DNA of 64,000 bases from positions 40,402 through 104,401 of the forward strand of contig CAYJTP010000002.1 of the NCBI GenBank assembly GCA_964373175.1. The letters are read 5' to 3'. A program made the position numbers and the translations under genes. Numbering within the stretch: the stretch's first letter is position 1; each line of letters begins with the position of its first letter. Shown here piece after piece: positions 1 through 21,000 of this stretch. This DNA is from an uncultured Planctomycetales bacterium (GTDB taxonomy: Bacteria; Omnitrophota; Gorgyraeia; Aquiviventales; Aquiviventaceae). Below the pieces are notes generated by a model. The model was not told the origin of the DNA, did not search any database, and was given only the letters and a program-made list of their open reading frames with translations.

Positions 1-20
1 CGGAGTTCGGAACAGCATTT

Positions 21-3000
21 TTGAGCGTCTTCCGGTTCAGCGAGATTCGCGCCAACCTGAATCTCCAAACGAACTCGGCGTGGGCCGACTTTACTCGGTT
101 TGGCATCACGCTCAGCCAACTGGCCAACCCGAGGAAGTACGAGTTGGGCGTGTTGGTGGATGATCCGGACTACCGCCTGGAGAATGTCAAGCGGACGGTG
201 ATTCGCGACCACCAGCTCCTGAGTGCGCTGAACGCTGACGCGACATTCCGAGGAGCCTTCTTTGACGTCTTCAGCCTGGCGGATCCTGGTGGGAGCCTGA
301 GTCTCGATGTGGCCCAATCCTACGCGGATCTCGTGCGGTTCGGGATCAGTGTGAGCTACTTGGCGAACCCGAAGAAGCTCGATCGGGACTCAAGCCGAGA
401 AATCGATGTTGAGTATGACTTCAATGAGACCCGAGACGGGATCATCCACGTCCAGCAGGTTCTCCAGGCGCTGCGAACGGATGCTCGGCTTCTGCAGGAC
501 TTCAACGCGGTGTATGGCTTGCGCTTGATCGTTTCGCAACTCAACCTGGATGTCAGTAGCCCCAGCCGCGATCAAAAGGCGCTCGGCTGGATTTTGGCTG
601 GGATCGTCCACGCGAGGGATGAGTACGACCGGAAACTCCCGTTTGTGTTGGAGGCCTTCACGCATGCGTTGCCGATCGTGAAGCAGATCCTGGAATCCGA
701 CAAGGCCCGGGCGATGTTACAGCGGCTCTATGGGGTTGAGATTCCTCGCGTGTTGAACCCGTTTGATCCGTCACCTCAGGTTCGTTCGGTCCGGGAGACC
801 GCGAGTCGCCTCCTCTTTGGCATCGCCTGGAACTGGATTGGCGATCAACGGATGCTGATTTATGTCAATGGGTGGCAAGAGCCCCACTACCGCTTCCCAA
901 CGGTTGAGCGATACCTGGAGGCGGTGGAGAAGATCGTCACGCTCATTGAGCTTTCGGATGAATACACTGAGATTCGGAACATCTTCAATCACGGCCTGCC
1001 ATTGGAGCTGCGCCATGACCGCGATGCGCTGACCATTGAGCGTCTCTTCGACGCGGTGCGCCACATCGGCCTGAAGGGCGCCTCGAAAGAGCAGTGGTAT
1101 CTGGATGTCCTGGAGTACGCCAAGACCTTGGTGAGCGCTGAGCGATTCAAGCGGTGGGTCGAGGCCAACAGCGATCTCGTGCTGGATCTTGGGCTGGCGG
1201 TGGATGAAGCCTTCATTACGCGCAATGCGAAGTCGCTCGCTGAGCCAATTCGCTCAGGGGTCACTGAGACGTACCAGTTCTACAACCGGCAGTTTGGCAT
1301 GGACATCCCGGCCTTCAGCATCACGAAGATCGCGGGCACGAACCTAGTCATTGCGACGGCCAAGACGCTCAGCGCCAAGCTTGCAGTTGATTTGCAGACT
1401 CATGAGATCTTTGGCGGCGAGATCGAACAAGAACTGGTCACCATTCACCACCAGGGTCGAACAAGGCAAGCCACGAAGGCTTCGAAAGCTTCGGCACAAA
1501 CGCCCACGACCACCGAACCCCGCACAGGCCCAGAACCTCAACGACTGTTGAGACCTTCCAGATTCCTTCCAGGATGGTCGCTTGCAGCCACACACTATGT
1601 TGACCCCACGGTTCGCTTTGGCGGAAGTGAGTGGTACCTCTACGACATTCTTAGTCTGAGTGCCGAGCACAAGCCGTCGCGTCTCCGATTCGAGGCGTTG
1701 ATGGAAACCAGTCTGGTGGGCAAGCCCGATCGAGGCGTGTTCAAAGCCGTTGAGAGTCGGCTGATCGTACCACGGCTGAGCCTCCGGACGAATCTGTTGG
1801 AGGGGAAACGCGGTACCATCGACCTTGAGCTGAGCAAACCGTTCATTGGTGAAGCCTCTGGGCCATGGTTGGCTGGTCTCCTGACACAAGGCGGGGGAGA
1901 ACGATGGTCGGCTGGGATGGAACTGAGGGGTTCGCTGTGGACCTTGGGCAAGACCACGCGAGGTGCAGGATTAGTCACGTTCCCGGTGTCCCTCCAGATT
2001 CCTGCTCTCCGAGGATCCTTGAACTTGACACCCGGCTTCTTCATTGAAGAGGGATTCTTCATAGTTGATGAGCAGCTAAGTGCTGGGGTTGGGATTGGCG
2101 ATGTGACGCTCTTTGCAGAACACAACCTCACCCATCTGGACGTCGTTCCAGCGGGTTTCCTCACCCCCAACACCGGTGATCGCCTCGGCCTTGGTGTTGG
2201 GAATCAGACGATTGGTCCACTCTCATTGACTGGCACGCTCTACCTCTATTCGTTGAATCCGCTGTTTAACAAGTGGAGGATTGAGGGAGGTGGGCTCACA
2301 CTCGGCATCACCGCGACGAGAGAACCCCAAGAGGCGGAACCGGAAGCTCCTGTCATGTCATCAGAGGAATCGATCAGTCAGGAACCGCAGGACGACCTCG
2401 CGACTGATCAGGCGCGCTTGGATACCGCTGCACTCAGCATAGATACTGTGATGGAAGGGGCAGTCAACCGTCTCATCGAGCGCAGAACCGTGGCGGTCGC
2501 CACCGGCCAGTTCACGCGCAAGGAGTTCGGCCGCTACGTCATTGATGAAACGACGCAGGAGCGGCTCTGGGTTTCGAGTGGCTATACGGTTGTGCGCATC
2601 GATGACAGGTACAGCCGCCTTGACTTCAACGGGACGCCCGTCCTCTACTACCGCGACACGGGTGAAGCCGGTCAGGACGTTCAGACGGAGCACCTTGGGA
2701 CATTTAAGACGAAGCTCGTGGAAGTCATCGATGCCAAGACTGTTCCGGCGGACAAAGACGGCACCCTCCAGCTTGACAAAGGCACCGTCATCGAACGACA
2801 ACACGTCGTGGTCGGCGATCCGCTTGGCCGAGCGGTGAGCCGGCACCATGTGGGTGGCCTGCTGAACGGCTATGTCGCGCTCATCGATGGTCTCGATCCG
2901 TACCTGCTGAACGGGTCCTTTACCGCCGAGCGCAGCCGGTTGGTGGACCCGAAGGGCAACACCGTTCGCTCCTATGAGGTAGTCAACCTCCATGAGAACC

Positions 3001-6000
3001 CTGAGGAGCTTGAGGTTGCTGTCCGCGATGCGAGTGGCTTACTGCTCTATCACGAGTTCATCCCCAACGGCGACATCCTCGGTGAATGGGTGAAGCGGGT
3101 GAAGACGCACGCCGACATGCAGGCCGTCACCACGCGCCACGCCGATCCCAAGGATCCCCGCAAGGACGCTGGCTATGACGTGGTCGTGACGAACAAGGGC
3201 GTTCCCATTGAGCACCGCGAAGTCTCAGATATCTGGGAAGAACCCGACACAGGTTTGATCCACGCCCACGAGCGCACGCAGGAAACCGGACAAGAAAAAG
3301 TCAGCATCTACGGCGCACTGGATGACCTCCGGGCTGAATTTACCGTCGGGCTGTCCAACAACACCGTGACGTTGGTGGAGTACGACGCCGACGCCAACGA
3401 GGCTGCTCGAACCACCTATCGCCTCACCGAAAACACGCAGGTGGATCCCAAGACGACCAGCCTAAAGGCTCTTCAGGACGTGGTCCAGCAGCCTCAGAGC
3501 GCCCAGGTCAGCAACGGCGCCGGGCAGCCCACGCGGAATGAAGATGGCACGGTCACAGTCCGAACCTGGGAAATCGTCTTCAGCGACCAAGGCCAGCCGC
3601 TCGGGAAGAAGACCGCTGTCGAAGTCCGCAACGGCTTGGGACGTCTCCTGAGTCGCACGACAGGCCACCAACGGGTCGAGCATGATCCAACCAAGCCCTT
3701 GGAACCGCCGCTTCGCAAAGTCGATACGTCCACCAACCAGCTCGTTCAGGACTACACCACGACTTTCGTCACCGAGGACCAGCGCATCACAGCCTTACAG
3801 GTGAAGACGACGGACCACCGTCATCACACCCAGTGGACCGACGTCTACAGCGTGAAGGAGGGCTTCGTTGAGCATCTCGTCGAGGGAACCGAGAACGGCC
3901 AGTCTGCTCAAGAGGTCACCGTGCCGGAGCGCGATGAATTCGGGATTATCCGGCATCAAGACACGTACTGGAACGATCGCGCAGGGACGAAGATGTACGA
4001 GGATCGGCTCACCGGATTTGACGAGTCAACCGGTGACGTCACTGTCACCCGCACCGATGTCAGGAAACGCGTTGAGGAAATTCGTACGTTCAACCAGGAT
4101 GGTGACCTCATCACGATCAAAACCGAATCGCGCACCACCACCATTGATCCAGCGACCCAGACGAGCACGACCATCGACAACGCCACAGGCGAAGTCCTCG
4201 TTGAGTCGATTGAAGCGTTCGAGCACGGGAAGAGAACGCGGATAGACACCTACTGGTACGACAAACGGCTTGGCATTAAGGCCTATCAGGACACCTCAGC
4301 CCTGAATGTGTTTGGCAGAGCCGAGACGGTGGTCACGGAAGATGAAAGGGCTCGCGTCGCCTACCACGAGGGCTTGGAGGTCGGCAGGCAAGTCTGGTGG
4401 AAGGGTGAGCTGGCTCGCGTGTACCGTCACTACGGTTATGGCCATGGCATCACGACACGCGAGGTGGACAACCAGTTTACGCACGGCACGCACACGGAAC
4501 GTCTGGACCAAAACGGTCGAGTCGTGAGCGAGCGCCACGGGAATGTGGAACTGAAGGTCATGTATGATGGCGCGACACTCCGGAGGACCAAGGCGTCCCT
4601 CCATCGGAAGATGAGCGATGGGAAGCTCAGCGCCAAACCCCTCATGACGTGGAAATACGAGTGGATCTTGGCATACAGCCACATCCCATGGCTGAAGGAG
4701 CTGTCACCAGAGGACCGGGCCGCGCTCGGCCTGAAGGACGCCACCCAGCTCCAAGCGATCACCACGACGACCGACTGGGGGGAAACCTCAACGGACTACG
4801 TCTTGGCTGGTGATCGGTATGGCCGAGCCCTCGTGACGAAGCTGCCGACGGGTGAGAAGCGCATCGTGGATGCATGGCTCAAGAATACCAACATGGCGCT
4901 GCAGAGCCGAATCCTGAGCCAAGACAATCAGCTGCTGAAGCGCTACGAGGCCACGCCCAAGCGATTGAGCGACGTGCTGGCCACGACGCAGCAGGGTCCC
5001 AACGGCCGCACGCTCCTGAACGACGAACTGGCCGGTGCGACGGTGGCCGAGATCAAGGAGTTTGACAATCAGGGGGTGTTGAATAAGTCGTGGGTCAGCT
5101 TCTTTCAGGTCGTCCCCGTGGCCAACCTCAAGGCTGGGGCACTCGATGTGATCCGCTATGATCCGACCAAGACCTGGGTGAAAGACGGCCAGGACACGTA
5201 TGAGGTGATCGACCAGCAGATCGGCAAGAAAATCATTGAATCCTACCGTGATGGCGCATTCGATGTTACGGGGTTGCAAGAGTGGCTGAAGGCGGATGGC
5301 TACCCCGACGCTGCGAACGCGCTCGCCCAACACGAAACCTACGATATCTACGTGCTCGGGCTTGATGAGCACACGCGGATCAAGACCTGGAAGACCGTCT
5401 TGAAGGCCAACAGCGATGAAGAGGTCTTACAGTATAACGCCAACGCCAGGCGGCTCCGCCTCAATCTCTACGATCGCGCAGGGACGAAGATCGGTGGAGT
5501 CGATTTCGACTACGACGGGTCGATGCCGGCCAGTCAGAGCCTGGAATCCTTAGCAGTGTCGGTGCGGTTGTCGGATCCCCTCGTCAAGGCCTTGGGCTAT
5601 CTCTCGGACGGTGAGGAGAAACAGTTCGAGAGCTTCCTCGTCCTGGACATCAAGAACAAGCTGGCATTTATCGAAGTACGGGACAAGCAAGATGGCGCCA
5701 CGGACAGGGTGGTCGACGCCAGCCCGCAATCGCCTCTCACCGACCAGTTGATCGGCGACCTGCTCCAAAGCCTGAAAACCTCGAATCTGGCTGAGGCCAA
5801 CGGCAAGCTGCCCCAACCGCAGCAGATCGAGAAATGGAAAATTGTCTCGAAGACCGTGTATCACTATCGTGCCTTTCAGGACTTCAGCGCGGTCCACCTG
5901 CGCAGGATGGGGATCGCTGGTCAGGCAGAGGGGTTCCTGTTTGATCCCAACACCAGGACGTACGCAGACCAGGCGGCGAGTGAATCGATCCTTGGCAATC

Positions 6001-9000
6001 TCGTGATTGGCCCTGAAGCCATCCGCTTCCCTGAGGCGATTCGCATTGAGATCTTCAGGGAGGATCGGCTGGAGCGACACGGCGCCCATGAGCTCAAGCA
6101 CACCGTAGAAGTGAAGGATGGCCTCGGGAGGAACACCGAGACCCAGTTTGGCCCCGCGGCGTCCGGCGAAACCCTGGAGGAGAAATTCCGCAACTTCACA
6201 GCAGAGCGCAAACGCTACCAATTCTATTTCTTCGAAGGCGGGGAGGAGAATCTGGCCAAGTACGGCATCGCAGATAAGAGCTTGGTCACCGTCGTCCTCA
6301 ATGGCCAGGAGTACCTCGCGGCGTTGTCCAACGCCACAGTCCCTCTTGCCAACGGCGATATCGACTACCGGACGCAAAAGGGTGTGAGCATCGAGCCCTT
6401 AGACATCCAGACCTTGGGCAGCACCGAATGGTATGCCCAGTTACGGGCCTGGCTGATGGAACGGAAACTGCAGTTGGACGGAGTCGTCTTGTCCTACGGG
6501 GAGGTAAAGACCAATCGCGGCCATCTCAAGCTCATCCTCACGGGATTCACTAAGAGCCAACTGGATCCGACGACCCACTTTGCGAAGAAAGGCGAACTAC
6601 CCCGAGACGTGACCTTCCTGCGCTACAACGACGAGGCACTCTTGTTCTACCTGGGCATCCCAGAGGGCAGCGTGACCTACGCCTACGATCCAGAGAAGCA
6701 GTTTGACCGTGCCCAATACGGGGAGGCTGATGAGCTTGCCCGAGCCAACGGGTTCAGGATTCAAAACCACCTCATGGTGTATGACGTCCACTTCGCCAAC
6801 AAATCAGAAAACGAGGGGAAGAAGCATCTTCGAGAAATGGGCGTCCGGTTGGACGGGAGTCTCGCCTATCAGGTCGGTCGCGATCGGTTCGATCTGTGGG
6901 GTTTGGATTTCGCACGGCCTGGCCGGGAGTACGACGCGATCGTCTCCTACGACATCCGAGAACTCGCTGAGGTCACGGAGCCGCTTCCGGAAGAGACGAA
7001 CCGGATCACCGACTTAGCACACCTCCGTCTACCTGGCGCAACAGCGGGCCGGAAGATCCAGCACCTGAATATCGTGTTTAAGGATCATCCGGGCTATCTG
7101 ATCACAACCAACACGGTGGCCCAAGAAGATCGCGATTACCTCGATGCTTTCTCGGACCTCATCAACGGTCGGGAAGCCCATTACGACAAGGCCCGTCATC
7201 TCCTTGTCCTGACAGGCGAAGAGCCTACGGTGGTGCTGAACGCCAAAGCAGGCCGGGACGCCAAGCTGTTCTTCCAAGGCGAGGAAGTCATGACGAAACA
7301 AGATCAGTTCACCACCCATGTCCTGCGAGATGATGAAGGAAAGAAACTGAACTTCGTGAAGCGACTCTATGAGGAAAATGTCAAGCGCAACAGCCTCTTC
7401 TCGAAGATCGTCAAAGCGCTTCCCGTCATCGGGGCACTCACGTTCTTGACATCGTTGCAGATGTATGCTGGCGAGCCCGCTGTGCCTGGAGTGGGGGCAA
7501 GCCAACCCAACCTGTGGCTCTATAGCCTTGGGGTGATTGCCGCTTATGTGTTTGTGATCTTGCCAACGTTGATCGCCGGGTTGTATTTCCTCTCGAAGGT
7601 CAACGCCTTGTTCTTGAGACTGGTCGTGAATGTGAACAAACTGATCCAGAAACCGACCAACAGACCACTGGCTCCTGGGGTGAACCCGGCTGACTATCGG
7701 ACCCCTCGGTATCACGAGGTGAAGCGCAAGGTCGGAGCTGTGAGCATCATTCCAGAGCTGATCCTCTACCTGGTGAACAAGGGAGCTGCTGACACCGAGA
7801 TTGAGCTTCAACGAGACTTCTGGAGGGCGGTGATCGATTACCAGATGAATCGCAAGCTCGGGGGGTATCGCTCCAAGAACTCGCTGCTCACCGCTCGTCC
7901 GTATGTCTTGGATATCCATGAGATCTCCAGCTTCTTGAAGCGTGCTCGTCAACAGGGGATCGATCCGATGACAGATGTCCCAGTGAACGGTCAAACACTC
8001 CAAACCGTGATCGAGTCACGGGCATGGGACGAGGCAGTGATCGACCAGGTGACCCAGGCGATTCGAGCCTTCTTGAGGGCTGGGCGACAGCAAGAGAACG
8101 CCGAACGGAAAGCCGCCAGGCTCCGCGGGAAGTTGCTTGAGGAAACCCCCTATCCGGTTGGGGCTTGGAAGTTTTCCTTCAAGATCCTCCCTCGGATGTT
8201 GAACGTCATGTTCCGGACACCCTTCCGAGGGGAAAGGACGCCGAACCTCTGGCAGGCCTCCAAGTTTTTTGGACTCATCATTGCCGAGACGATCCTGTCC
8301 GCAGTCGGGTTAAGTGCGCTGATGTTTGTCTATACCGCTCCTGAAATCTCTGCCTTTCTGCCGATGCTCTTTGGCCTCATCCCATTTACCGCGGTCGTGC
8401 TGCTCAATTTCTGGACTGTGCTGTACCTGAACTATGCAAGCCTGTTTCGGATCGTTCGGGGTCGGTTGCATCTGGATAACGTCTCCACGTGGAGCAGCGC
8501 CCAGCGCGTGTTTCGGCAGCTTCGACGCCAGTTGAAGCCTCAACTGAGAGGAATCTTTGATGTGTTCTACCGGCATGAAATTGACAACCTGCGGTTTGCG
8601 AATGATCAGCCAGGGAGAGGGCCGCTCGTCAGTGAAGACGAGCACACCGCGTTGCTCCATGCCCTTGAGGGAGGCCGGTTAATCAAGCCCCAGACCTTCG
8701 AAGCGACAGAAACCCTCAAGCGATTCCTCAACAAATGGGCAAAGGTCCAGGCAGACTTTAATGCACACCCTGAAGAAATTGAAGCGATCCTGCAAGGCGT
8801 CGAAGATAACCGGGAAGACTACCGGCTCAATGTGATGCACTCAGGCTATGGGGAACTGGTGTGGGTGCATTTCGAGCAGCTGGATGTCTTGGCTGAAGAG
8901 CCTGGAAAAAGAGAGGTGGTCACAAAGTTCCGGAAGCTCATGATGGTGCACCCCGAGGAGTGGACCCTGTTCATTCACGACCGCGTTGGCAATCAGCTGA

Positions 9001-12000
9001 CCAGACAAGACGAACAATTCCTGTCACCTCGTCGCAGAAGCCTCACCGCTGAATCGGCCGCTGCGTATCTCGCCCAACGCTTAGGACAACCGCTCGATGA
9101 TATCAAGGAGCAAATCGAGAAATGGGCCAACTGGCGGTTGGAGAACGCTGGGAAGACTATCATCGCCACGATCTTTAGCCATCTGGAAACCTATAAGGCA
9201 TGGGCAGAGGTCCTAGGGATTCCTGAGACACAGAGGGAGGCGTGGGCACGAGCCAGGGTTAAGGTGGTGGTCAAATATGACGAGTATGGACAGAATCCAG
9301 GCCGAACCGCCGACTGGGATCATGTCAATCAACGCTTTGGCAACATCCTCACCACTGCAAACCAGACGTCCTATGAAGCCAGGGAGGCGGCCATATCGGC
9401 CTGGCATCACGATGATCAGCATGCGGCAATCCTTGTGGGAGCGCCACCTGCCGAGATGAGAGGACATGGAACTAAGGTCGGGGGGTGGGCGTTGGTCATT
9501 CCCTATTTGGATAGCGACCTTGTCTATTTCTTGGATATTGGCCATCGGTTGGCATTCGATAGTGTGATGTTCACGCCGTTCATTTCCCGACAATTTGAGA
9601 CCAATCAGTCCCTGGCCATGGTGTCGCCGGTCTACTACGCGTATGAGGAAAACTACACGTCAACGAGCCGGAGCATGAGCATTGGCCATGAGGTGTGGGA
9701 CCGGGATATCCGCTCTATCAAAGACGTCATCGATAGCGAAGACGACTGGGGCAAGAAGTATGCTCGTGTGAGCGCCTTCGAAGCCGTCAACGCGTTTCTG
9801 CCAGAGTACAACTCTGAGGATACCGCTGGCGGGGTGCGGATGCTCAAGCTTGGCTACGACATCCGCCACACGGAGCTTGTGGATGTTCCGCAGTCTGTGG
9901 AAAAAGTGCACTTCTTGGGACGCTCCTTTGTGCTGCGCTTTGGCTCAACGGTCCCAGAACTCCTGCTCGGCCGTCCAGTGTGGAAGTTTCTCGGGTCACC
10001 CTTTGTCCACTGGACCGCGAAGCTTGGCACATTCATCAGCTTTAGCCACTACCTGCGCATTGCCTTGACGGCGGTGACGATGGTGAGCTTTGTCGTGTTG
10101 AATATGTTCTTCCCCTGGTCCCTCTTTACGCTGCTCCCATTTGTTCCAGTGTTTCTGACGCTCAACTTCTTGGCGAACCAGGCGGTCAATGCTCAAACCG
10201 TGTATCGGTACGAGCAGCGCTATGGGCTCCTCAAGGGTCTGGTGATGTTCTACAAGGATTTCCCGAACCTCTTCATCGATTACGTGACCTACGAGGTCGG
10301 GAACTTCCGACAATTCCTTGAGGGCCTACGCGGGTTTGGAATGTTTACATTCAGTCCAAGGATTAGCAATCTCTACCGCCATACGTTCAAAGCCCTTTGG
10401 AATGAACCGACTGTACGGACAGGGGTCAAGCTGGCGGCATTCCTCACGCCATTTATCCTGCTCATGCCGCTGCATCCAGTGAAGCTCTTGCCCAACCTTG
10501 GCTTTGTCGTGGCGGTCGTCACGTGGTTGGTGGGGCCGTTTATTCGGAATGTCCGTACGCCGTTTTCCGTCAATCCCATTCAATGGGCTAGACAATTGGC
10601 GATGGATGTGTTGCTGGTGCCTTGGGCGTTGTTGCGTGTTTTTGTAGACATAGGAAAAGACCTGAAAGAGAAAGTAAAGAAATGGCACGCAGGCCAACAG
10701 CGGTTGAACGTCATGCTGAGCGTGGCTCCACTTCTTGCCTGGCCGATGCTTCACAGGGCTATGCAAACCTCAGGTGTGACGTGGGGCGATGTGGCGTATT
10801 ACTCGTTAATGGGTATCACAGCTCTGGCAGTGCTGGGATCGATTGCCTCCGCAATTTATGAGATGAGGTACCGAACAATCTATTTTCAGCACTATGGAGA
10901 ATACGAACTAGAATTGAAAGAGAGAGCGGACTCACATCCTCTAGTGAGAATCCTCGTGGGACTTGGTGTAGCTACAGCCGTTCCTCTTTTTATGGTTGCA
11001 GTTGATGGGGTTAACCTGTCGGTCGTCATGATGATCGGCATGATACTGGCTCTCATGTTTGGAATAAGGAACCTAGATACGTCACTGGGAGTGATCTGGC
11101 AAAGTCGTCCTCTCCAGGTTAAAGAGCTGTTCAAGACAACAATGCCATTTCTCTCCGCTGAGTTCAGCGATAAGTTGCTGGAACAGTTGTGGTATGTGAC
11201 GCGACCGTATCGTGACAACAAGGCAGCTCTAGATGCGATTGCAGAAATCATTAGTTCTATGACGGAGCCTGGACGGAAACTCAAACCTGACTACTTTAAA
11301 CGGGGTGGTAAGTACTACACGACTAAATGGTGGAGCCATGGATATGGGGCCTATGAAGAGTACGAGGAGGAAGTAAGTGAAGAGGAAGCCACTCTCCCTG
11401 AGGTAGTAACCATCCCTGATGTAGCTAAAATCACAGAACTACTTAGCCATCCTAATGAACTTAACCGATTAGTGGTGGAACGTCTCAAAACAGTACAACA
11501 GTTAACTTCCAATACAGATAGCTTGAGACATCGTGGTCGCGGTGAAGCGTCTCCTGGGGCGTCTGAGACCGGGAACACGAAGCACCCTGGGAAACGACAC
11601 CAGCGATATCCTGGCAAGGTTGAGCGGGTTGGCTCTGAGGACAAGACCCAGGACGTCCATGTGACTGCGACGGTCAGTCCTGATCGGAACATCGCCTTTG
11701 AGTATCCGCCTGACGCCACGGTGCTAACCCGCTTGACGCCCGAGGAAGAACAGATGGTCCGCCAGAGTCTCCAGAACTGGCTGGCGACGCTCGAGCATGC
11801 GCCGCCCTTGCAGGCGAGGCAGATTCCGCTGTTGGTCACCGACAATCTCGATGAGGTGGCCAGACATCAGGCCGGCAGAATCGAGATCAACGCCGCCATC
11901 CTTCGTGGGCCACCTCCTGGTGGTCCCGAAACCCCCCAAGACCGCCAACTCTTCCTGCACGGTGTGATCTATCACGAAGGCTATCACTTCCTCTCCCCGC

Positions 12001-15000
12001 GCGACTCAGAAGCCCAAGTCCAGCGAGCCACCCTTGACTACTTTAAGACCAGACGAGACATCCTCGTCGCGACGCGCCGGGTTCTCGATGCGAACAATCC
12101 AAACCTCATCACCGGACAGGAGTGGCTTTCCCAGCTCGACGAGCTCGAGCGAACGCTCCAGCTTCAGGATGGTGTCTTGGTCTTCAGCTTGGAGGGAGTC
12201 CTGGTGCCCTACACCCCGCAGCGCAAAGCTCGACTGGTTGACAGTCCTGTCTATCCAGAATTCATGGCGCTCCTCCGCAACGGGTTCCGGATCGTGGTCA
12301 ATGCGGGACACAGCCTTGAGAACGTGCTCCCTCAGATTCTGGATGGCCTGCCCGAGGCTGATAAACCGCTGCTGAGGAACCTGACCATCTATTTCAACCG
12401 CGGCACGGCGAAAGTGACGTTCAGGTCCTCTGGTGAACCAATCTTCGTTGAGTCCTATGCAAAGACGCTCTCGGATACCGACATCCCTAGGCTGCACAAT
12501 ATTCTCACAGAGCGCGTCAACGAGTATTGGAACTGGGTCCTGGAGGATCGTGATCGGTTCGAGCGGATGTTCCCGCGGTTCAGGCTCACCGATCCGCCGA
12601 GTCCGCCGAGGACTGAGTATCGTACATGGCAACCCTCTGCGTCGCAAGACCAAAACATGGGATTGTACAAAATGATGTTGTACCAATGGGGGTTGAAAGC
12701 AATGCCCTCTATTCCCCACGTGACACAAATCACGATTCTCCCATTCCCGTCCATAGAACTCGAAGGCGTTCCGGGAGCGACCGATTGGAGAAAAGCGTTC
12801 TTAACGCGTCTCCTCGAGGACCTCAAGGCTCAGGCTCCGGACTTATTGGAGCGTTACGATTTTATCCCTGGCGGGATCTATTCCATTGATATCGTCCGGA
12901 AAGGGGTGGGTAAAGATACACCGCTCAAAGAGGCCACGGCAGGTGTTGATCCTGGACATGTCCTGGTGGTCGCGAACACGGATCTGCATGGAGAAGGGGA
13001 AGGGGATTTGCCCTTGGGAACCCTTTCCTATCTCCAGCCCTACTCCGTGGGGGACATCAGCGATCTCCCGAAGGGATTCCGCACAGCTGGAATGGGGCTC
13101 TTTGCGACAAAACAGCTTATGCGCGAGGTCCTCAAAAACTATGACTATGCGAAGGCCCATCCGGAGCGTCCACCAACGAATGCGATCGGCACGGTGAAAG
13201 AATTCCTCCGCAAGCGACAACAGGCGATTTATGACATGTCGTGGTCCCCGACGATTGAAGGAGCGGTCCAGCAGTTCAACGCGTGGAGGAACCAACAGGC
13301 GACCCAAGGGAAGTCACCGAGCCGGGAGGACCAAGAAGACTATGTTCGGGGACTCTTTCAGACCTATCAACTCAATCGACTGAAGGGGTCGCCCTGGACG
13401 GACCTTTACGCACGAACACTTGCAGAACGCATGCACGCACAGACAGCCATCCGCACCCTCTTAAAAGAGCTCACCGCGGTCGATAAAGCGGAGCAATTCT
13501 ATGCACTGGTCGACGCAATTGACCAGCGCATGGGACTACGGAACGAACTGAGCAGCCAAGATTTCTGGGAGTACTACAAAGCAGTCGATCCCCGTGTGAT
13601 CCTAGCCCTCCGACGCCTCAAACAGATCACCGGATACGATGAGCATCGGCTTCGGGACGAGGTGATTCGCGAGGTCGCAGCATCTGAGAGGTCTCTGGGG
13701 CATGCGTTGAGTGTGCCACGGGTTTTGGTGAGCTACGCGGGTGATCGGATGGTCTTTCCGGCGATCAAAGCAAGCCCTCACAAGCCGCATGTATCTCCGA
13801 GCCAATACATGTATGTCGGTGGCGGGGGACCGGCGGCATCGTTCCTCATCCAAGGATGGATCCATCAAGCTCGCCAACGTGGAGAGCTGGCTCCAAACGA
13901 GCACGTGACAGATGTCACACTCGATCGCACCAAGCTGGGGCCTGCGGTCATGACGGTGGCCACGATCACGACCACCTTTGATGATGGGGGAGACTCGAGG
14001 AATTTCCTGCTTGGCTTTCTCGAAACCCCTCCCTATGAGACCTACTTCCTCCCGCCGGGAGACATCTCCGTCATGCTGGGCTTTGCGACGGATGATCCTG
14101 CGAAGCTCTGGTTTCTGCACTATGCCGACAAGAAAGAAGGACGGATCAGCGGTCGTGCAATTGCTCCGATCTGGCTCAAACGCCTCAAGATGATTCATGA
14201 AAAAATTGAGAATGGCCTATTGCCCCGTCCACCGGATTGGCTGGCCTTCGTCAACGCCGCGATGACGCTGGGTGATCTGTTGGATCGCGAGCTGGTGGAG
14301 CGGAACGTGGTGCATCCATCTCGATCGGAAGCGCCTCCAGCTCAAGCACGAGGGAGGGAGCTTCTGTTCAAAGACGGCAGCAGCCAGAATTTCTTCACGG
14401 AGGCTGCTGCGGGCTTAGACACCGGGGCGCTGATCCCTGGCGATGAACACCTGATCCGCGGGTTGTTCGATCCCTCGCGCTTGGATATCGACCATCTCAA
14501 GACTCTGCTGGGCATCCGCGATGCCCACGTCTACCCGGTGAGCCCCGATGAAGCTACGCTCGTGGCCCTTGATGAACAGGGCCACACGGTGGATCAAGAC
14601 ATGCACGTGACCCTTGGGGGCCGTATCTATCCAGTCCACCCTGCCGAGGAACAGACCGGCATTAGTGACAAGGCGCATGTTGGACGAATCCACCAGGTCA
14701 TCTTTCGAAAGCGGGTACCTAAAAAAGAGGAGAAAACGAACGTCATTTCTTATTCCTATCGCCAATTGAGACCTGAAGAGATACCAAAAGCGACCAAGGA
14801 GGAACTAGAGGGTATTGCGCGAGTTCTACAGGTGATTGTCTCCGGGCTGGGGAGTTCCTTCACGAGCATTCTTCCTGACCTGATGGTCCAAGGGGTGGTG
14901 GAGGCGATCATGGAGCGGCAAGACATCCCCCGCATCTATGTCGCCAAGATCAAGAAAGACCTCGAGACCTCCCAGCTTGATGTAATCGGGAAGACCTTGC

Positions 15001-18000
15001 GGGCGATCCCGCTCCGTGAGCAAATCGCCGTGATGGAACGATCCCTCGAAGGCGCACTGGGCAAGCCGGTCCGGTTTGAGCGGCTCTTCAGCCATGTAGT
15101 CCTTCCCCGTCTTTCGCAGAAAACCATTGACCGGCTGGCTGAGCTGGACAAGCTCACGGACCTTGAGGTCGAAAAGCTGCTCGAAGGGGGACCCCAGATC
15201 AGCAAGTATGTTCGAGGAGCCCAACTCATCAGCCAGGAAGACCTCGAGTTCCTCCAATCCCGCGGGATTCAAATTGTCTGGGTTGACGAATCGGACATTG
15301 AACTGCTCGGTGAGAAGAGGCGAGATGCGTGGTATCTGGGACTCGCCTTGAAGGCGTTACAGACAAAGACACCTCTCGAAAATGAGGATCAGCTGCTCTC
15401 CGTAGCCGACAAGACGAAAATTGTCGTTGAACACTCGACAGGTCAGGTCTTCGTGGATGGGAAAGAAGTGACCAAGGCACTTGGGGACCGAAAGGTTACC
15501 GAAGCAGCTCAGGTGGTTTCTCGCCACCCGAAGGTCCGTCACTACGTCAATCAACACTTGTTGGCTGAGGGAACGCTCACGGAGATTGAAGCGTTGGTCG
15601 ACCACATGGACCAGAAACCTCCCTACTATAAGACGCAGCCCCTCCTCAGGACGATCGATGAGATTGTCGCGTCGTACAGACCTTCCCAGCAGGCTGATAT
15701 CATCACGATTGACGGCCCTGCGGGAACCGGCAAGAGCACGGTAGCGCGCAAACTCGCTAAGCGCTTGGGTTGGCGCTACCTCGATAGCGGGGCGCTGTAT
15801 CGAGCGCTCACCCTCAAGGCGTTGGAGGAAAAGATTAAGTTGGATGATGAGATAGGGCTGTCCGACCTGGCCTGGGAAACCCAGATTGAACTCTCCGGAG
15901 ATCAGGTCTTGTTGGATGGAAAGGACGTGACAAAGGCGATTCGGAGTCAACAGGTGACCAGGGCCGTCTCGCTGGTTGCGCAACATCCAGGGGTCCGGCA
16001 ATACATCACCTGGCTGCAGCGCCGCCTGGCCAGGTCGGGAAAGACGATCTTAGAGGGCCGAGATACCGGAACCGTGGTGATGCCGGGAGCGATGCATAAG
16101 GTCTATCTCGATGCGCCGCTCAACGTACGTGCCGAGCGGCGTCAACAGGAACTCGCTTCCCGAAAGATCACGTCCAGGCTCGAGAAGGTCCGTCAGGGCA
16201 TCGAGAAGCGCGATCAGCGTGATCAGGGACGCGCGATCGCGCCACTGCGTCCTGCGCCAGGGGCCCACCTCATTGACACGGATCAGATGACCAGTGACCA
16301 GGTGGTTGACCAGATTCTCGCTGGAAAAGGAGCCGCCTACGGAGCCCTCCTGATCGATGCTGATGTGACCCTGCTACGCTCGGCCGATAAGACAGAGACG
16401 TTGAGCACCAGCCCGGCCCGAGACGCCTTGCTCAAGGTGCTTCAGCAGGGGGTGCGCGTGGCGATCATGACAGGCAACAGTGCGACACAAGCCCTGGCCC
16501 GCCTGATCGAGACCCCCGCACAGGGAGAGCAGCCAGCTCTCGTCCACATCCCACCGGAACTTCGTCACCTGGTCACTGTATACGCCAACGGGGGCTTACA
16601 GAAATTCACCTTTGACCAGGCTGGCGTTCCGCACGAAGAGGAAGCGTACCGGTCGGGGAAAGAGATTCCAGCGACCGATCGACAACGGATCCTTAAATCC
16701 ATCCAGCCGCTGCTAGACTGGTATCGCAACCGCGTTCAGAGTCTGGGTGGGCGGTTTATTAACGCACAACCCGACTTCCTCCTCCAAGGCAGAACCCTTA
16801 GGATTCCTGAGATCGTTCTCGAAGGAGAAACATCGGGTGAAGGGGTGCTGAAAATTGCCCTGATGTTCCTTTCCGCTCATCGGGCCATGGAGCTGAAAGA
16901 CTCCAAAGCCCCTGAGACCTTTCCGGATCTCCGGCAGGAGTTCCTTGAGAAGCTGTTGGCCATGCTGCCAGATGACCTGAAGGGCCGCTACAGCTTTAGC
17001 GAAGGTGGTCTCAGCAGCATCGATATCAAGCGCAAGGGGCTGGATAAATTGGTGGATGTCCGAGACTACTTGACCTCAACCAACCTTGCGCCTGAAGATG
17101 CCATCTACTTCGGAGATGAAGTCTATCCGGGAGGAAACGACTACCCTGTGACGACGATTCCAGGGCTGTTGGTGATTGGAGTCAATCCCGATCAGTCGAC
17201 CGTCGCAACTCCCGCCATCCCGGGTGGCGCAGGTGTCATGGGGACCACGTGGTGGTTAGAGAACCTTGATCAGTTGATTACCTTTCATCCCACGAGGAAG
17301 AAGTTGGTCAATCACCCGATCGCGCCCACGCCGATTCAACACCTACGTCTCCAAGCACAAGGACCGTGGCGGGAGCGAGAGACGTCGGCAGGCGTCGCCC
17401 GCGAACTCCTCACCTCTGTGGATGGGGGTCGTCTCATCGCCACGACCTATTCGCTCACTGAGCACTCAGCGCGCGATCAGGAGGCGCCTCAAGTCGCAAA
17501 AGGCCCCAACCAACTTGCGAGAAATGTGCTGGTGGATGGGGTCGTATTTCCCCTGGTCAATGACCAAGGCTGGACTCTTGATACCGCGTTAGCCCAGGAC
17601 CTGACCTCAGAGCAGCAGCCGCTCCTCCATCCAGCTGAGGCGGCCAAGGGTGCTCCCGGGACACGCTTCATCCTCAATCTCCTTTACTACCTCACGGTGC
17701 GGCTGTATGAACGGTATAACCAACTCCGGAAAGATCGACCGGCCGAGCAGCTGACTCGCCAAAACTTCTATCTCGATCACTACAAACCCTTGCACGGTGA
17801 GGAACGGTTCCCCTTGTACAACAAGGGCTATGTTGGCATCGGTAAGGACGGTAAGCTCATCTTCGGCCAGCGAACGCTCCTTGGAGGCAAGCTCTGGTTC
17901 GGTTCGCGGGAGCTGTCCTGGACCGAGCGAGATATCAACCCCACTGCTTGGAGCTTAGCCGGTCATCCGGTCATCGTTTACACGCCGAGTTACGCCGATG

Positions 18001-21000
18001 CCGCTTCGTCTTTCACTTCGCAGGTCACCGGCAAGCCCGGTGATCCCAATTTCAGCGTCACTGTCGGGCGAGCACGGTACAACCTCCTCGTCATCGATAA
18101 CCGCATCGAAGCGGTGATCCACGGGGAGGTATTCCTGCCCTATGTGGGGGTGGTGCTCTCGGTTGATCAAGCGACCTTCGATCGGGTGTTCCGTGATCAG
18201 GTGGAGCAGGTGGATGTTCAAGGGGAACGCCGCGAGGTCTACCGCCCACGCGTCAGCTATCGCTTCCAGCTCGATCCGCCGAAAGCGTTTGAAGGTGATT
18301 GGAGCCACGTGCAGTGGCTGATGGGAGGCGGGTACCTGTTGGTCGCGCACGGCGAGAACCTCGTGGCCACACCAGAAAAGACGCAGGAGAGCCTGAGAGC
18401 TCAGGGCTGGCTCAACCCACTGTCACGCCAGTCACTGGAAACGCCACTGGACGTGCGTGGTCCTGAGCAACGAGATCCTACCGTGGTGATCGGCCAGACG
18501 AAAGATGGGCAACTGTTCGTGGTCACCTTCAGCGGACGGACCATCCACAGCAGCGGCGTGACCTTCCCTGAGGCCGTGCGCATTCTTGAGGAAGAGTTTG
18601 GCGCTGGGAATCTCGAGTGGGTCTTGAATCTCGATAGCGGATCCTCAGTGTCCTTGGGTGCGGTGGATGAAGAGGGTCGCTACCATCTCCTGAATTATCC
18701 TGGACCAGGTCCTGATACCTTGGCGGGAGAGGTGAGGCCGGTCAATAGTCTCGGGTTCATCACGACCCGCCAAGTTCCCAGACGTCTTGGGCAACTTCAG
18801 ACACTCGCCCATACCGCCGCGCCCTTCCAGCCCATTACGGAATGGAACCAGACATTTGAGAAGTTCAGGCCTGGCGATCCCGGGACCGACACAGTCACCG
18901 TCGGGCTTGATCTGGGTTCAGGGAGAGGCCGACACCTCTTCCAGATCACGGTGCCGAGAACCGACGATCCTCCCGTCCAAGCCGCGATCATCCGCTACCT
19001 GGCGATCCAGATCTATAACCGCTTGGGAACGTTTGGTCCTGAGCGGGTGTTGATCGATGCGCCTGAGGCGCTCTACAACCAACTTGTCGCCTTCTTAGCG
19101 CAAGGCGGCTCAGCGACCTCGTTTGGACGCATCCAGGCGTATCTAGCCCTAGTGAACCAGAAGCCGTTTACCATCCTGCCAGCCGATCGCACGACCATCG
19201 AGGCGCTCCCGGCTGAGCCTGTCGGTCTGGCTGTGCCGGATATCAATCCGCGCCGAGGCCAGGTCGTAGCGATTGACATCGGAGGGACCGATGTCAAAGT
19301 GGTCGCCATGCAGGACGGTGTAGTGGTCTATCAGCACACAGCAAACTGGGTTCCCGAGCAGTTCACCGACCCTGAGCAACACGTTGAACTCCTTGAGCGT
19401 TTGATCCGACAGGCCCAAGCAGAGGGCAAGCTCCCAGCATTGGATGCCATTGGCATCAGCTGGAACTCAGCTGTGCGCGACGGCCGCATTGCGGCTTCCA
19501 CCAAGGCGACCAAGGGATTGACCGAGGAGCAGTTCCGCAACGTGATCAGTCCGATCCGCGAGCGCTTTGAACGCGACTTCAAGATTCCTGTGGCTATCGC
19601 GAATGACGGGGATGCTGGGGCGCTGTGGGCAGCGGTAGAGCTTGGCGTGAACAATGCGCTGGCCCTCAGCATGGGAACCAACCTCGCCTCTGGCTATGTG
19701 GACCCCCAGGGGGACCTTGCTCCCTACTTGACCGAGATGACCAACGTCATCATCGACCTTGGGACAGAAGCCGCTCCCCATTCCTTTACGAAGGTCCCAG
19801 GGGTCTCGCAGCAATACCTGTCTCAACAACCTGCGTTCCGCTTGGCGCGTCAAGCTGGCATCAGCCTCGATGCGATGGCGCATGACGCGGCTCGGTTAGA
19901 GTACGTGCAATCGCTCCTTGACCAGAACGACCCACAGGCCGTTTCGATTTTCAAACAGATCGGTCGATACTTAGCGACGCACATCGCAGAGACCCAGCAG
20001 TACCTTGGAATGACCAACGTCATCCTCTTTGGTCGTGTGGTGCGCGGTCGTGCTGGTAACCTGATTGTGGAGGAAGCCCAACGCGTCCTGCGGGACATGG
20101 ACCCGGTCCTGGCTGATGCGGTGACCATCCGCCTTGCGACCGAGGTCCACTATGGGCAGGCGATCGGGGCAGGGTATCTGGCCAGTCGCCATTTCCAGCA
20201 GCTTAATTCCACTGATGAAGTCGAGATTGCCCGTCGGCGATTCGATGAACGGTGGGTAGCAGCTCAACAAAAACAGGCGCGTGGATTTACAGCCGAGGAT
20301 GTGCACAACGCCTACTACGATGCGCAAAGCAAGCAGTGGAAGTCAATCTACGGAATCAGCCCCGTCGTCTGGATAGACCCAGGCCTTATGAAACAAGTCC
20401 AGAGCGCGTTGAAGGCTAAACTCTCACCAGCGCTTCAATCAAAGCTTGTCTGGTTCACTCCATCCACGAGCCACGTCACCATCGCTTACCTTGGGCTTTG
20501 GAGAACGACGCCCCTCGATAAGGAAACAGTTCAAACGTATCAAGCGCTGTCCGACCAAATCATTCCAAAACTCATTCGGAGACCCCTCAGCTTTTCAGCA
20601 GAAGGCGTTGGTATGATGCTAAACGGCGCCCTGTTTGTTCCCATGATTCCCACTGAGGGATCGCTCGCGATCCTCGACCAGGTGGACGCACGCTATCTTG
20701 AAGAGGTTCCTGGTCTCGAACATTTCCCGAGCGTCGTTCCCCATGTAACGCTTGCGTATCTTGTTAGCGAATTAACCCCAGAAGAGATGCAACAGCTACT
20801 CAAGGCCATCGAAGAGCTTCGGGGAATCCAATGGGGAGCCTATCGGGCTGACGAGATCGTGCTCTATGCTTACGATGACTTGTCGCTTGAACGTGGGCGC
20901 GTGTTGAACCGGTACGATCTGACGGCGCCCGCGAGCCAAGCCAAATCCCCAGCGCCGATGGCGATCCTGACGGGTCTCTTGGCTGGACTGTGGCTGGGCC

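Follow-up and report, generated by a model that had tools for sequence, protein, structure and literature searches.

How bacterial genes of tens of kilobases (kb) originate and change is an open question. A 64,000-nucleotide (nt) stretch of contig CAYJTP010000002.1 (hereafter the window, meaning all of the DNA analysed) gives a concrete and testable example. It holds a giant open reading frame (ORF) that contains, at the junction of two conserved protein modules, an island of unusual base composition about 1 kb long. An earlier note on this DNA had proposed that this AT-rich stretch and two milder ones were foreign segments acquired in frame, giving the gene a mosaic origin. The question that the locus raises is whether the junction took in foreign coding DNA or acquired its composition in place. 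We find that the island is the strongest compositional outlier of the gene and that its limits coincide with limits of homology, and we tentatively favor a fairly recent in-frame replacement or insertion from a lower-GC source.

From window position 3 onward the frame is open, and no in-frame stop precedes it, so the giant gene must be longer than the window; a TTG at position 21 is not necessarily its start codon. There was no Pfam match in the first ~14 kb of the window. Beyond that point, the frame encodes CofD, cytidylate kinase, HAD, NAGPA, ROK, 2H, several methyltransferase, HATPase, REC, helix-turn-helix (HTH) repeat, acyl-CoA dehydrogenase, transaldolase, TPR, GT4, and alpha/beta hydrolase domains. 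About 39 hydrophobic transmembrane (TM)-like runs, detected by a Kyte-Doolittle scan, are scattered among these domains. We note that host values throughout are those of the rest of the same ORF, beyond which there is only 0.9 kb of downstream DNA.

The giant ORF has a GC content of 0.581, with values of 0.646, 0.423, and 0.674 at the first, second, and third codon positions (GC1, GC2, and GC3). By comparison, the interval singled out by the earlier note, 10850-11530, has a GC content of 0.455 (GC1 0.551, GC2 0.361, GC3 0.454), and its description as AT-rich was confirmed: of the ~420 windows of 600 nt along the ORF, those at this place rank lowest, their GC having a z of -3.9 and their GC3 one of -3.6. 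Expected GC3 was computed from the encoded amino acids with ORF-wide synonymous usage. For the interval, this expectation was 0.685, a deviation of z = -7.7 under independent codons; allowing for the ~1.9-fold overdispersion of the ORF reduces this to an effective z of about -4. Sliding-window profiles of GC, GC3, and codon usage thus deviate significantly at the island.

The limits of the island could be drawn more precisely. A maximal-segment scan placed it at 10539-11555 (the broad definition, used below unless stated otherwise), where GC3 is 0.484 against 0.692 expected. The score of this segment was 36.6, compared with a mean of 8.6, a 99th percentile of 12.9, and a maximum of 15.6 in 1000 simulations of the null. 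The best two-level likelihood change-point fit gave a core that starts at 10806 and ends at the same position, and both sets of limits describe the island better than 10850-11530. The support interval of the 3' change point is narrow (11534-11639) and that of the 5' one wide (10530-10896), so the sharp shift in composition that had been reported holds at the 3' edge, but the 5' shift is not resolved as sharp. A three-level model, which sets the trough at 11415-11555 apart from the remaining island, gained 4.9 log-likelihood units over the two-level model, a marginal improvement.

Unusual codon usage was likewise borne out. Rare codons are enriched 2-6-fold in the island, as seen in the codon shares of island versus ORF for CTA (12% vs 2%), GTA (26% vs 5%), ATA (18% vs 4%), AGA (19% vs 6%), AAA (71% vs 32%), CCT (62% vs 21%), and ACA (42% vs 15%). 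Codon usage overall differed strongly (G = 124, 40 degrees of freedom, p = 1.5e-10), ranking first among windows of equal length (mean 52, standard deviation 14). The composition-normalized tetranucleotide correlation with the ORF was 0.32 for the island versus 0.705 +/- 0.086 for windows (z = -4.4), and the island windows gave the two lowest correlations in the ORF; the dinucleotide delta* had a z of 1.8. Under the Lawrence-Ochman criterion, acquired DNA is recognized by GC at codon positions 1 and/or 3 that is >10% lower. In the island, GC3 is 48.4 versus 67.7 in the host (-19.3; 44.8 in the core), GC1 is 56.3 versus 64.7 (-8.4), and GC2 is 38.6. The island therefore shows the features by which parametric methods recognize acquired DNA, namely departure of codon-position GC, atypical codon usage, and an atypical oligonucleotide signature. 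It is the strongest outlier in GC, GC3, codon usage, and tetranucleotides in the 63 kb.

To place the island within the protein, we considered the modules on either side of it (Table 1). Upstream lies module A, a divergent GT48-like membrane module that is 36% identical over 1,500 amino acids (aa) to the relative P0002 and 43% identical over 564 aa to P0003. The parts of two relatives' loci that align to module A match Pfam PF02364 (L003, 5.9e-27, 94.7 bits; L006, 5.5e-23, 81.5 bits; cutoff 37.2), and the window's own sequence is too divergent, falling below Pfam thresholds. GT48 membership of module A is therefore a matter of transitive homology, since only the aligned regions of relatives score. 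A direct PDB sequence search with module A and the island gave no match. Identity to the two closest module-A relatives is 40-72% as far as aa ~3509, then declines to 35-38% and 15-25%, reaching background by aa ~3590. Five homologue alignments of module A stop at aa 3513-3516 (nt 10541-10550) and others by aa 3612; only the alignment to P0030, which is weak (23% identity), extends to aa 3696 and so covers a putative TM hairpin of the island. The membrane helices encoded in the 5' half are thus perhaps not new material but the rapidly diverging end of module A; no counterpart of the soluble half was found.

Downstream lies module B, whose alignments to many relatives start at aa 3848-3869 (nt 11544-11607). 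It scored 239 bits against its profile hidden Markov model (HMM), has a GC3 of 0.709 and host-like codon usage, and carries an HEGYH motif that is the majority state in the family. An AlphaFold2 (AF2) model made with an alignment was confident, with a predicted local distance difference test score (pLDDT) of 83.5. The best PDB profile match was MJ1213 (E 0.25) and the best Foldseek match was selecase 4qhi (E 0.9, TM-score 0.54 by target); these matches, all weak, point to a selecase/MJ1213 minigluzincin. Widespread among giant proteins, this ~190-aa HExxH domain has no annotation; P0001 (L011) has two copies of it.

The composition edges at 10539 and 11555 coincide with the homology edges, since alignments of module A end and those of module B begin there. 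Between them, homologue searches returned nothing. A HMMER scan with nt 9903-13202 as the query against 1.84 billion representative proteins gave 54 matches, which cover query residues 1-260, 549-750, and 740-1086, and none of the 54 has its best match in the island part (~260-550). A search for a donor or close relatives found nothing close in GTDB genomes or by a word-indexed protein search, and JGI metagenomes yielded only two loci, with 33% identity to module B. In all relatives found, which are 22-50% identical in the flanking modules, the island is absent or unrelated. A single-sequence AF2 prediction of the island was uninformative (pLDDT 45). The island is a lineage-specific junction spacer between two conserved modules, containing poorly conserved membrane helices, and not a recognizable functional module as the earlier note had it.

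Spacers at this junction vary widely among relatives, and none of them resembles the island (13-14% identity, as for random sequence). Measured as the distance between the aligned A and B parts, the spacer is 22 aa in L003, 94 aa in L001, 195 aa in L007, 318-375 aa in L004-L006, and ~250-355 aa in this window. Re-alignment from a conserved GPF motif near aa 3513 gave ~90-150 aa with two to three hydrophobic helices for L001, L003, and L007, and ~355 aa for the window. The closest module-A relative, P0002, continues for 255 aa past the end of homology and has a TM pair at the equivalent offset, with 13-14% identity to the island (random level); L002 also has TM helices at an offset equivalent to that of the island hairpin. 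Some relatives (L009 and L010) carry module B without an upstream module A, and P0007 carries A without B. Because modules occur in different orders and combinations in relatives, module order appears to have been shuffled among giant genes.

All 12 of the relatives' loci that were fetched (L001-L012) are low in GC (0.37-0.46, with GC3 0.29-0.48), and the window, at 0.58, is a high-GC outlier among known carriers of modules A and/or B. No comparable low-GC3 segment was found in homologous giant genes. Their A-B junction had no dip in GC3 or in codon typicality, and a rare-codon cluster was absent from it in seven homologous genes. Low GC3 is thus not a conserved property of the junction, and a conserved junction effect was rejected as an explanation.

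Several simpler causes of the island were also considered and rejected. Amino acid composition does not account for it, as the GC3 expected from the island's own amino acids is 0.69. Neither does TM composition: TM helices elsewhere in the ORF are slightly above expected GC3 (+0.04), and TM and non-TM codons within the island are depressed alike, by 0.21 in GC3. Another reading frame or an antisense gene was rejected because the giant frame scores best of the six there and ORFs in alternative frames are unremarkable. Codon-position periodicity (56/38/48) is also kept, which together with the frame scores indicates that the island is real coding sequence. Promoter-like sites in the island numbered 0 against 2.0 expected, and terminator-like sites were at chance level, which argues against an internal promoter or terminator; an RNA element was rejected, as the island had no Rfam match even at E <= 1.

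Repeats and known mobile elements gave a similar picture. Island DNA is not duplicated anywhere in the 64-kb window, and no internal paralogue of the island was detected within the ORF. No near-identical template repeat, as expected for the variable region of a diversity-generating retroelement, was present within the 64-kb window, although a template elsewhere in the genome is possible. For an intein, mobile intron, insertion sequence, or miniature inverted-repeat transposable element, there was no Pfam or NCBIfam match, no Rfam match, and no terminal repeat in the island. The idea that the island is a degenerate copy of module B, suggested by 7-bit phmmer alignments ('WSHGYG...EEATL...PD' versus 'WHEGYH...EEATL...PD'), was rejected as unsupported: a 33-sequence module-B profile aligns the island in another register, with 0.7-1.4 bits, a score that ~3% of 1,307 scored shuffles also reach. 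We also note an exact 12-nt repeat, TGACTACTTTAA (encoding DYFK), at 11288-11299 in the island and 12035-12046 in module B.

The reading that we tentatively favor is a comparatively recent in-frame replacement or expansion of the A-B junction. The new DNA would stem from the coding sequence of a genome with ~46-48% GC, plausibly from the equivalent variable spacer in the giant gene of a lower-GC relative, and would have yet to ameliorate toward the host's ~58% GC and GC3 of 0.67. The island codes for the final membrane helices, which are poorly conserved and include a two-helix hairpin, and then for a ~165-aa orphan soluble stretch; such an arrangement would leave the topology of the downstream protein unchanged.

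Codon-position composition is consistent with this reading. We applied the equilibrium lines GC1 = 0.615x + 26.9, GC2 = 0.270x + 26.7, and GC3 = 1.692x - 32.3 (PMC7042692, citing Lawrence & Ochman). The three codon positions of the island imply genome GC contents of 47.9, 44.2, and 47.7%, which are mutually consistent, compared with 61.5, 57.9, and 59.1% for the rest of the ORF. The profile of the island is near that of the L003 gene (53.2/37.4/45.8). In contrast, module A shows the pattern of a long-resident segment, with low-GC-like amino acids and host synonymous sites: its implied genome GC is 48.7/48.7/59.0% (GC3 67.6), and its GC3 over 6603-10538 is 0.684, which is host-like. With the host codon table, flanks score -1.52 bits per codon and the island -1.84, worse than any flank.

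Other observations weigh against a transfer. Searches of proteins, genomes, metagenomes, viral contigs, plasmids, and phages turned up neither a donor nor a homologue of the island, and no relative closer than ~50% identity was found in any collection searched. Direct and inverted repeats at the island edges are short and at chance level, and mobility genes or hallmarks (integrase, tRNA) were not found there. The genome-wide composition of the host is known only from the 64-kb window and the 0.9 kb downstream. The loose 5' edge runs parallel to the gradual decay of conservation, and the hairpin possibly belonged to module A from the start, which would favor replacement or no transfer over simple insertion. 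A uniform codon model (-1.68 bits per codon) fits the island better than the tables of low-GC relatives (-1.77 to -1.89, the best being L003), which is also compatible with a sequence without codon selection. Finally, the amino acid indices of the island are only mildly low-GC-like, with I/(I+V) at 0.35-0.41, the same as in the host, and K/(K+R) at 0.44-0.50. Since there is no donor, no close relative, and no mobility signature, and a rival explanation also fits, our confidence in the replacement or insertion stays somewhat short of even.

That rival, a serious one although in our view less likely than not, involves no transfer and accounts for most of these facts. The island would be a weakly constrained spacer, for which an open frame and some hydrophobic helices suffice, or one too variable for recombination with relatives; it would be at AT-biased mutational equilibrium or a relic of an ancestral low-GC state, while codon selection or GC-biased gene conversion would keep GC3 high in the conserved modules. 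The uniform codon model is the best fit to the island, as would be expected of such a spacer, and the island's GC (0.46-0.48) is near that of the sole available intergenic DNA (0.497). However, other parts of the ORF that lack homologues in the sampled relatives are normal or high in GC3 (0.722 for aa 1-1695; ~0.675 for aa 5107-5421 and 6042-6259). The fall in GC3 follows the gradual 5' loss of conservation, but protein constraint is not expected to move synonymous sites by 0.2 GC3, and the effects of accuracy selection on synonymous sites are small. Junction spacers are hypervariable in all relatives, every sampled relative is low in GC, and the amino acids of module A imply a low-GC ancestry of the whole region, all of which suits an origin without transfer; against this, relatives' spacers have no consistent dip, although one would be hard to see in low-GC genomes. 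The strong periodicity of the island shows ordinary coding constraint rather than neutral drift, and its tetranucleotide signature is the most atypical in the ORF even after normalization for composition.

It is improbable that the island is a selected cluster of slow or rare codons, or a stretch of weakly structured mRNA, at which a pause after the last hairpin lets the glucan-synthase module insert and fold. The 2-6-fold enrichment of rare codons agrees with such a role, and the deepest trough in GC3 (47 codons, 0.255) stands directly 5' of module B, ~125 codons past the TM hairpin; cotranslational folding should also matter in a protein of >21,000 aa. However, GC3 does not dip after the other ~35 TM runs of the ORF (residuals -0.02 +/- 0.015), and the same junction has no rare-codon cluster in seven homologous genes. 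At 250-340 codons, the island is also far above the length of known pause clusters, and its GC1 and GC2 are shifted too, beyond the reach of synonymous selection. Pausing is thus unlikely to explain the whole island, but it could still apply to the 47-codon trough.

An assembly artefact, in which conserved sequence led to part of the giant gene of a lower-GC relative being built into the contig, is barely credible. The DNA evidently comes from a metagenome assembly (elsewhere, the window is matched at 100% identity by a Logan contig of run ERR4904392) and the island edges adjoin conserved modules, but two in-frame chimeric joins would be needed between genomes >10% apart in GC, shared k-mers at both edges are very unlikely given that the conserved modules are <50% aa-identical in every relative found, and the frame is continuous, with the 5' part of the island still collinear with module A of P0002 and P0009.

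Table 1. Features of the window; positions are in window coordinates.
Feature	Position (nt)	Strand	Residues (aa)	Details
Giant ORF	3..63065	+		At least 21,020 codons; stop at 63063-63065
High-GC3 stretch	4503-5477	+		GC3 in the range 0.79-0.82; z about +3.6 to +4.2
Module A, divergent GT48-like (1,3-beta-glucan-synthase-like) membrane module	6603..10538	+	~2200-3600	Transitive homology
Compositional island, broad definition	10539..11555	+		Maximal-segment scan; 339 codons; GC 0.478
Island core	10806..11555	+		Best two-level likelihood change-point fit; 250 codons; GC3 0.448
Helix		+	3597-3618	Inside island
Putative TM hairpin	10941..11066	+	3647-3688	Two adjacent hydrophobic helices; Kyte-Doolittle scan; inside island
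Orphan soluble segment	11067..11555	+	3689-3851	K/E/Y-rich; mostly helical by prediction; homologue not detected
Deepest trough	11415..11555	+		47 codons; GC3 0.255; GTA/CTA/TTA/ACA run directly 5' of module B
Module B, conserved ~190-aa HExxH domain	11586..12152	+	3862-4050	HEGYH at 11973-11987
2H-phosphoesterase domain	20472..20876	+		Pfam; GC3 0.548; z = -3.4; GC1 65.9%
HTH-repeat dip	37140-38117	+		GC3 0.567
Transaldolase domain dip	42759-44207	+		GC3 0.54; p = 0.006
74-nt direct repeat, copy 1	51415-51488	+		
Retropepsin-like ORF	51522-52013	-		Weak match
DUF5678 ORF	51946-52200	-		7e-6; above gathering score
Further dip	51960-52199	+		GC3 scan; strength similar to the HEGHH and 2H dips
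74-nt direct repeat, copy 2	52267-52340	+		89% identity to copy 1
Coiled-coil ORF	52415-52801	-		44% identity to a free-standing 91-aa gene on two groundwater contigs; database-wide E 4.5e-4
DUF5615/PIN-like ORF	52932-53264	-		1.5e-13; directly downstream of DUF433 ORF
DUF433 ORF	53271-53567	-		Pfam 1.6e-18; 66.7 bits
74-nt direct repeat, copy 3	53704-53777	+		66% identity to copy 1
Low-GC3 segment around HEGHH motif	55722..56237	+		Secondary segment; 172 codons; GC3 0.477
High-GC3 stretch over alpha/beta-hydrolase domain	58878-59852	+		GC3 in the range 0.79-0.82; z about +3.6 to +4.2
Further dip	61080-61391	+		GC3 scan; strength similar to the HEGHH and 2H dips

The two milder dips that the earlier note had described fared differently. 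The segment around the HEGHH motif was significant, its scan score of 18.4 being exceeded in 0 of 1000 simulations, while the 2H region, scanned as the segment 20415-20798, was marginal and not significant in the scan (score 8.2, p = 0.56). In the HEGHH segment, only synonymous sites are shifted (GC1 71.5%). It has no Pfam match, and a homologue search of the region found none, a weak negative given that the tool also missed known module-B homologues. Because only GC3 is low in the HEGHH and 2H dips and GC1 is host-like or higher, both are unlike low-GC foreign coding DNA. The proposed foreign in-frame origin is therefore partly supported for the main island and poorly supported for these two regions. 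Several other dips, similar in strength and absent from the earlier note, and high-GC3 stretches occur (Table 1), which indicates that GC3 varies from module to module throughout the ORF; its overdispersion ratio climbs to 2.4 at 800 codons.

Internal repetition was also seen within the giant ORF. Five tandem ~67-aa HTH (HTH_23-type) repeats, mutually 42-55% identical, occupy 37149-38114, within the HTH-repeat dip. A ~280-aa helical TPR-like module is duplicated at 47220-48110 and 48930-49691 (44-51% identical), with a weaker third copy at 49812-50300. Among relatives, the giant ORF of L009 (JGI Ga0315284_10000083) has a 613-codon segment with a GC3 of 0.51 against a gene mean of 0.33 (score 44.7 versus a null of ~6), so strong intragenic compositional islands occur in other giant genes as well, in this case in the opposite direction.

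A second region, at 51.5-53.6 kb, bears on whether giant ORFs are single genes, and its cluster of antisense genes is more surprising than the island. When all six frames were scored with the codon table of the ORF, the giant frame was best throughout the 63 kb except at 51.5-53.4 kb, where minus-strand frames lead. The minus-strand ORFs there look like real genes, at least three of them having a supporting Pfam match or homologue, and their own-frame GC3 is host-like (0.62-0.73). By their domain matches, the DUF433 and DUF5615 ORFs resemble a toxin-antitoxin-type pair. Over 51489-53703, the giant frame has 0 stops and the other five frames have 14-29. Synonymous resampling of the minus-strand genes put the chance of the giant frame staying open at ~2e-4, an improbability that is overstated if the window was chosen for its long ORF. 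An independent Logan contig (L015, ERR4904392_32146) is 100% identical to window positions 51576-55278 (3.7 kb), which places reads of the source organism in run ERR4904392, and a gene caller run on this contig called the minus-strand genes.

The antisense-gene region is bracketed and partitioned by the three copies of a 74-nt direct repeat. In the giant frame, these repeats encode a TM-like 'GGLEGHLLAGLGVVLSVIGFGGLL' followed by basic residues, and a sorting-signal HMM search of the repeat peptides gave no match. In relatives, toxin-antitoxin genes are found between consecutive giant genes. PIN, HicB-like, and ParE/PhdYeFM genes come directly after the giant gene in L005 (17.1-21.7 kb), L006 (26.2-26.9 kb), and L007 (20.8-21.4 kb), and in L006 and L007 another long gene follows next, the same layout as the one that is read through in the window. 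Two giant genes may have been joined here by reading through a region of antisense cassettes; alternatively, real genes may lie nested in antisense orientation within a translated giant gene.

Together with the reordered modules of relatives, this read-through of antisense genes independently supports the general view of the gene as a mosaic. A broader generalization can be drawn, which we regard as rather unlikely: giant genes would grow and diversify by in-frame capture of foreign DNA at junctions, with the island as a young capture and the 51.5-53.6 kb region as an extreme case, in which two genes were welded or genes nested antisense. An intragenic compositional island is by itself an ordinary kind of signal. 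In this case, either the module junction is compositionally young or it escapes the forces that shape the remainder of the gene, and its high-GC carrier holds modules whose other known carriers all have low-GC genomes. Should a gain be the true explanation, replacement at module junctions would be a route of giant-gene evolution.

The island can be compared with several known systems. As in recently transferred DNA and ORFans (Lawrence & Ochman amelioration), GC is low at all codon positions in consistent proportions, codon usage and the oligonucleotide signature are atypical, homologues are lacking, and the flanks are host-typical. Unlike these, the island is ~1 kb inside a continuous frame, not a gene or a genomic island, its edges are without mobility genes, tRNA, or repeats, and no donor is known. 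Mosaics formed by intragenic recombination, such as pneumococcal pbp and Neisseria porA and tbpB, share with the island a block of divergent composition between conserved sequence, with the frame kept. In classic mosaic genes, close species exchange homologous blocks whose donor alleles can be identified. In contrast, no homologue of the block described here could be detected, and identity to known relatives is <50%. Like rare-codon pause clusters at domain boundaries or after TM segments, the island concentrates rare codons past a TM hairpin and immediately ahead of a domain, but it is far longer than known clusters, is not conserved in homologues, has no counterpart at the ORF's other TM segments, and is shifted at non-synonymous positions as well.

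In kind, the giant gene itself resembles those for the 'Archaeovorin'-type proteins, the giant, membrane-associated multi-module proteins described from Omnitrophota (West-Roberts et al. 2023, bioRxiv 10.1101/2023.11.21.568195). A term search of that preprint found a few mentions of GC content and none of codon usage or mosaic origin. The SecA_DEAD domain of these proteins was not found within the window, but the ORF continues upstream. Shared features are a very long and mostly unannotated ORF, with many TM segments among divergent metabolic and carbohydrate enzyme domains, and relatives in groundwater and sediment metagenomes. The giant ORF described here differs from all of the relatives found in its GC content, at 58% compared with 37-46%.

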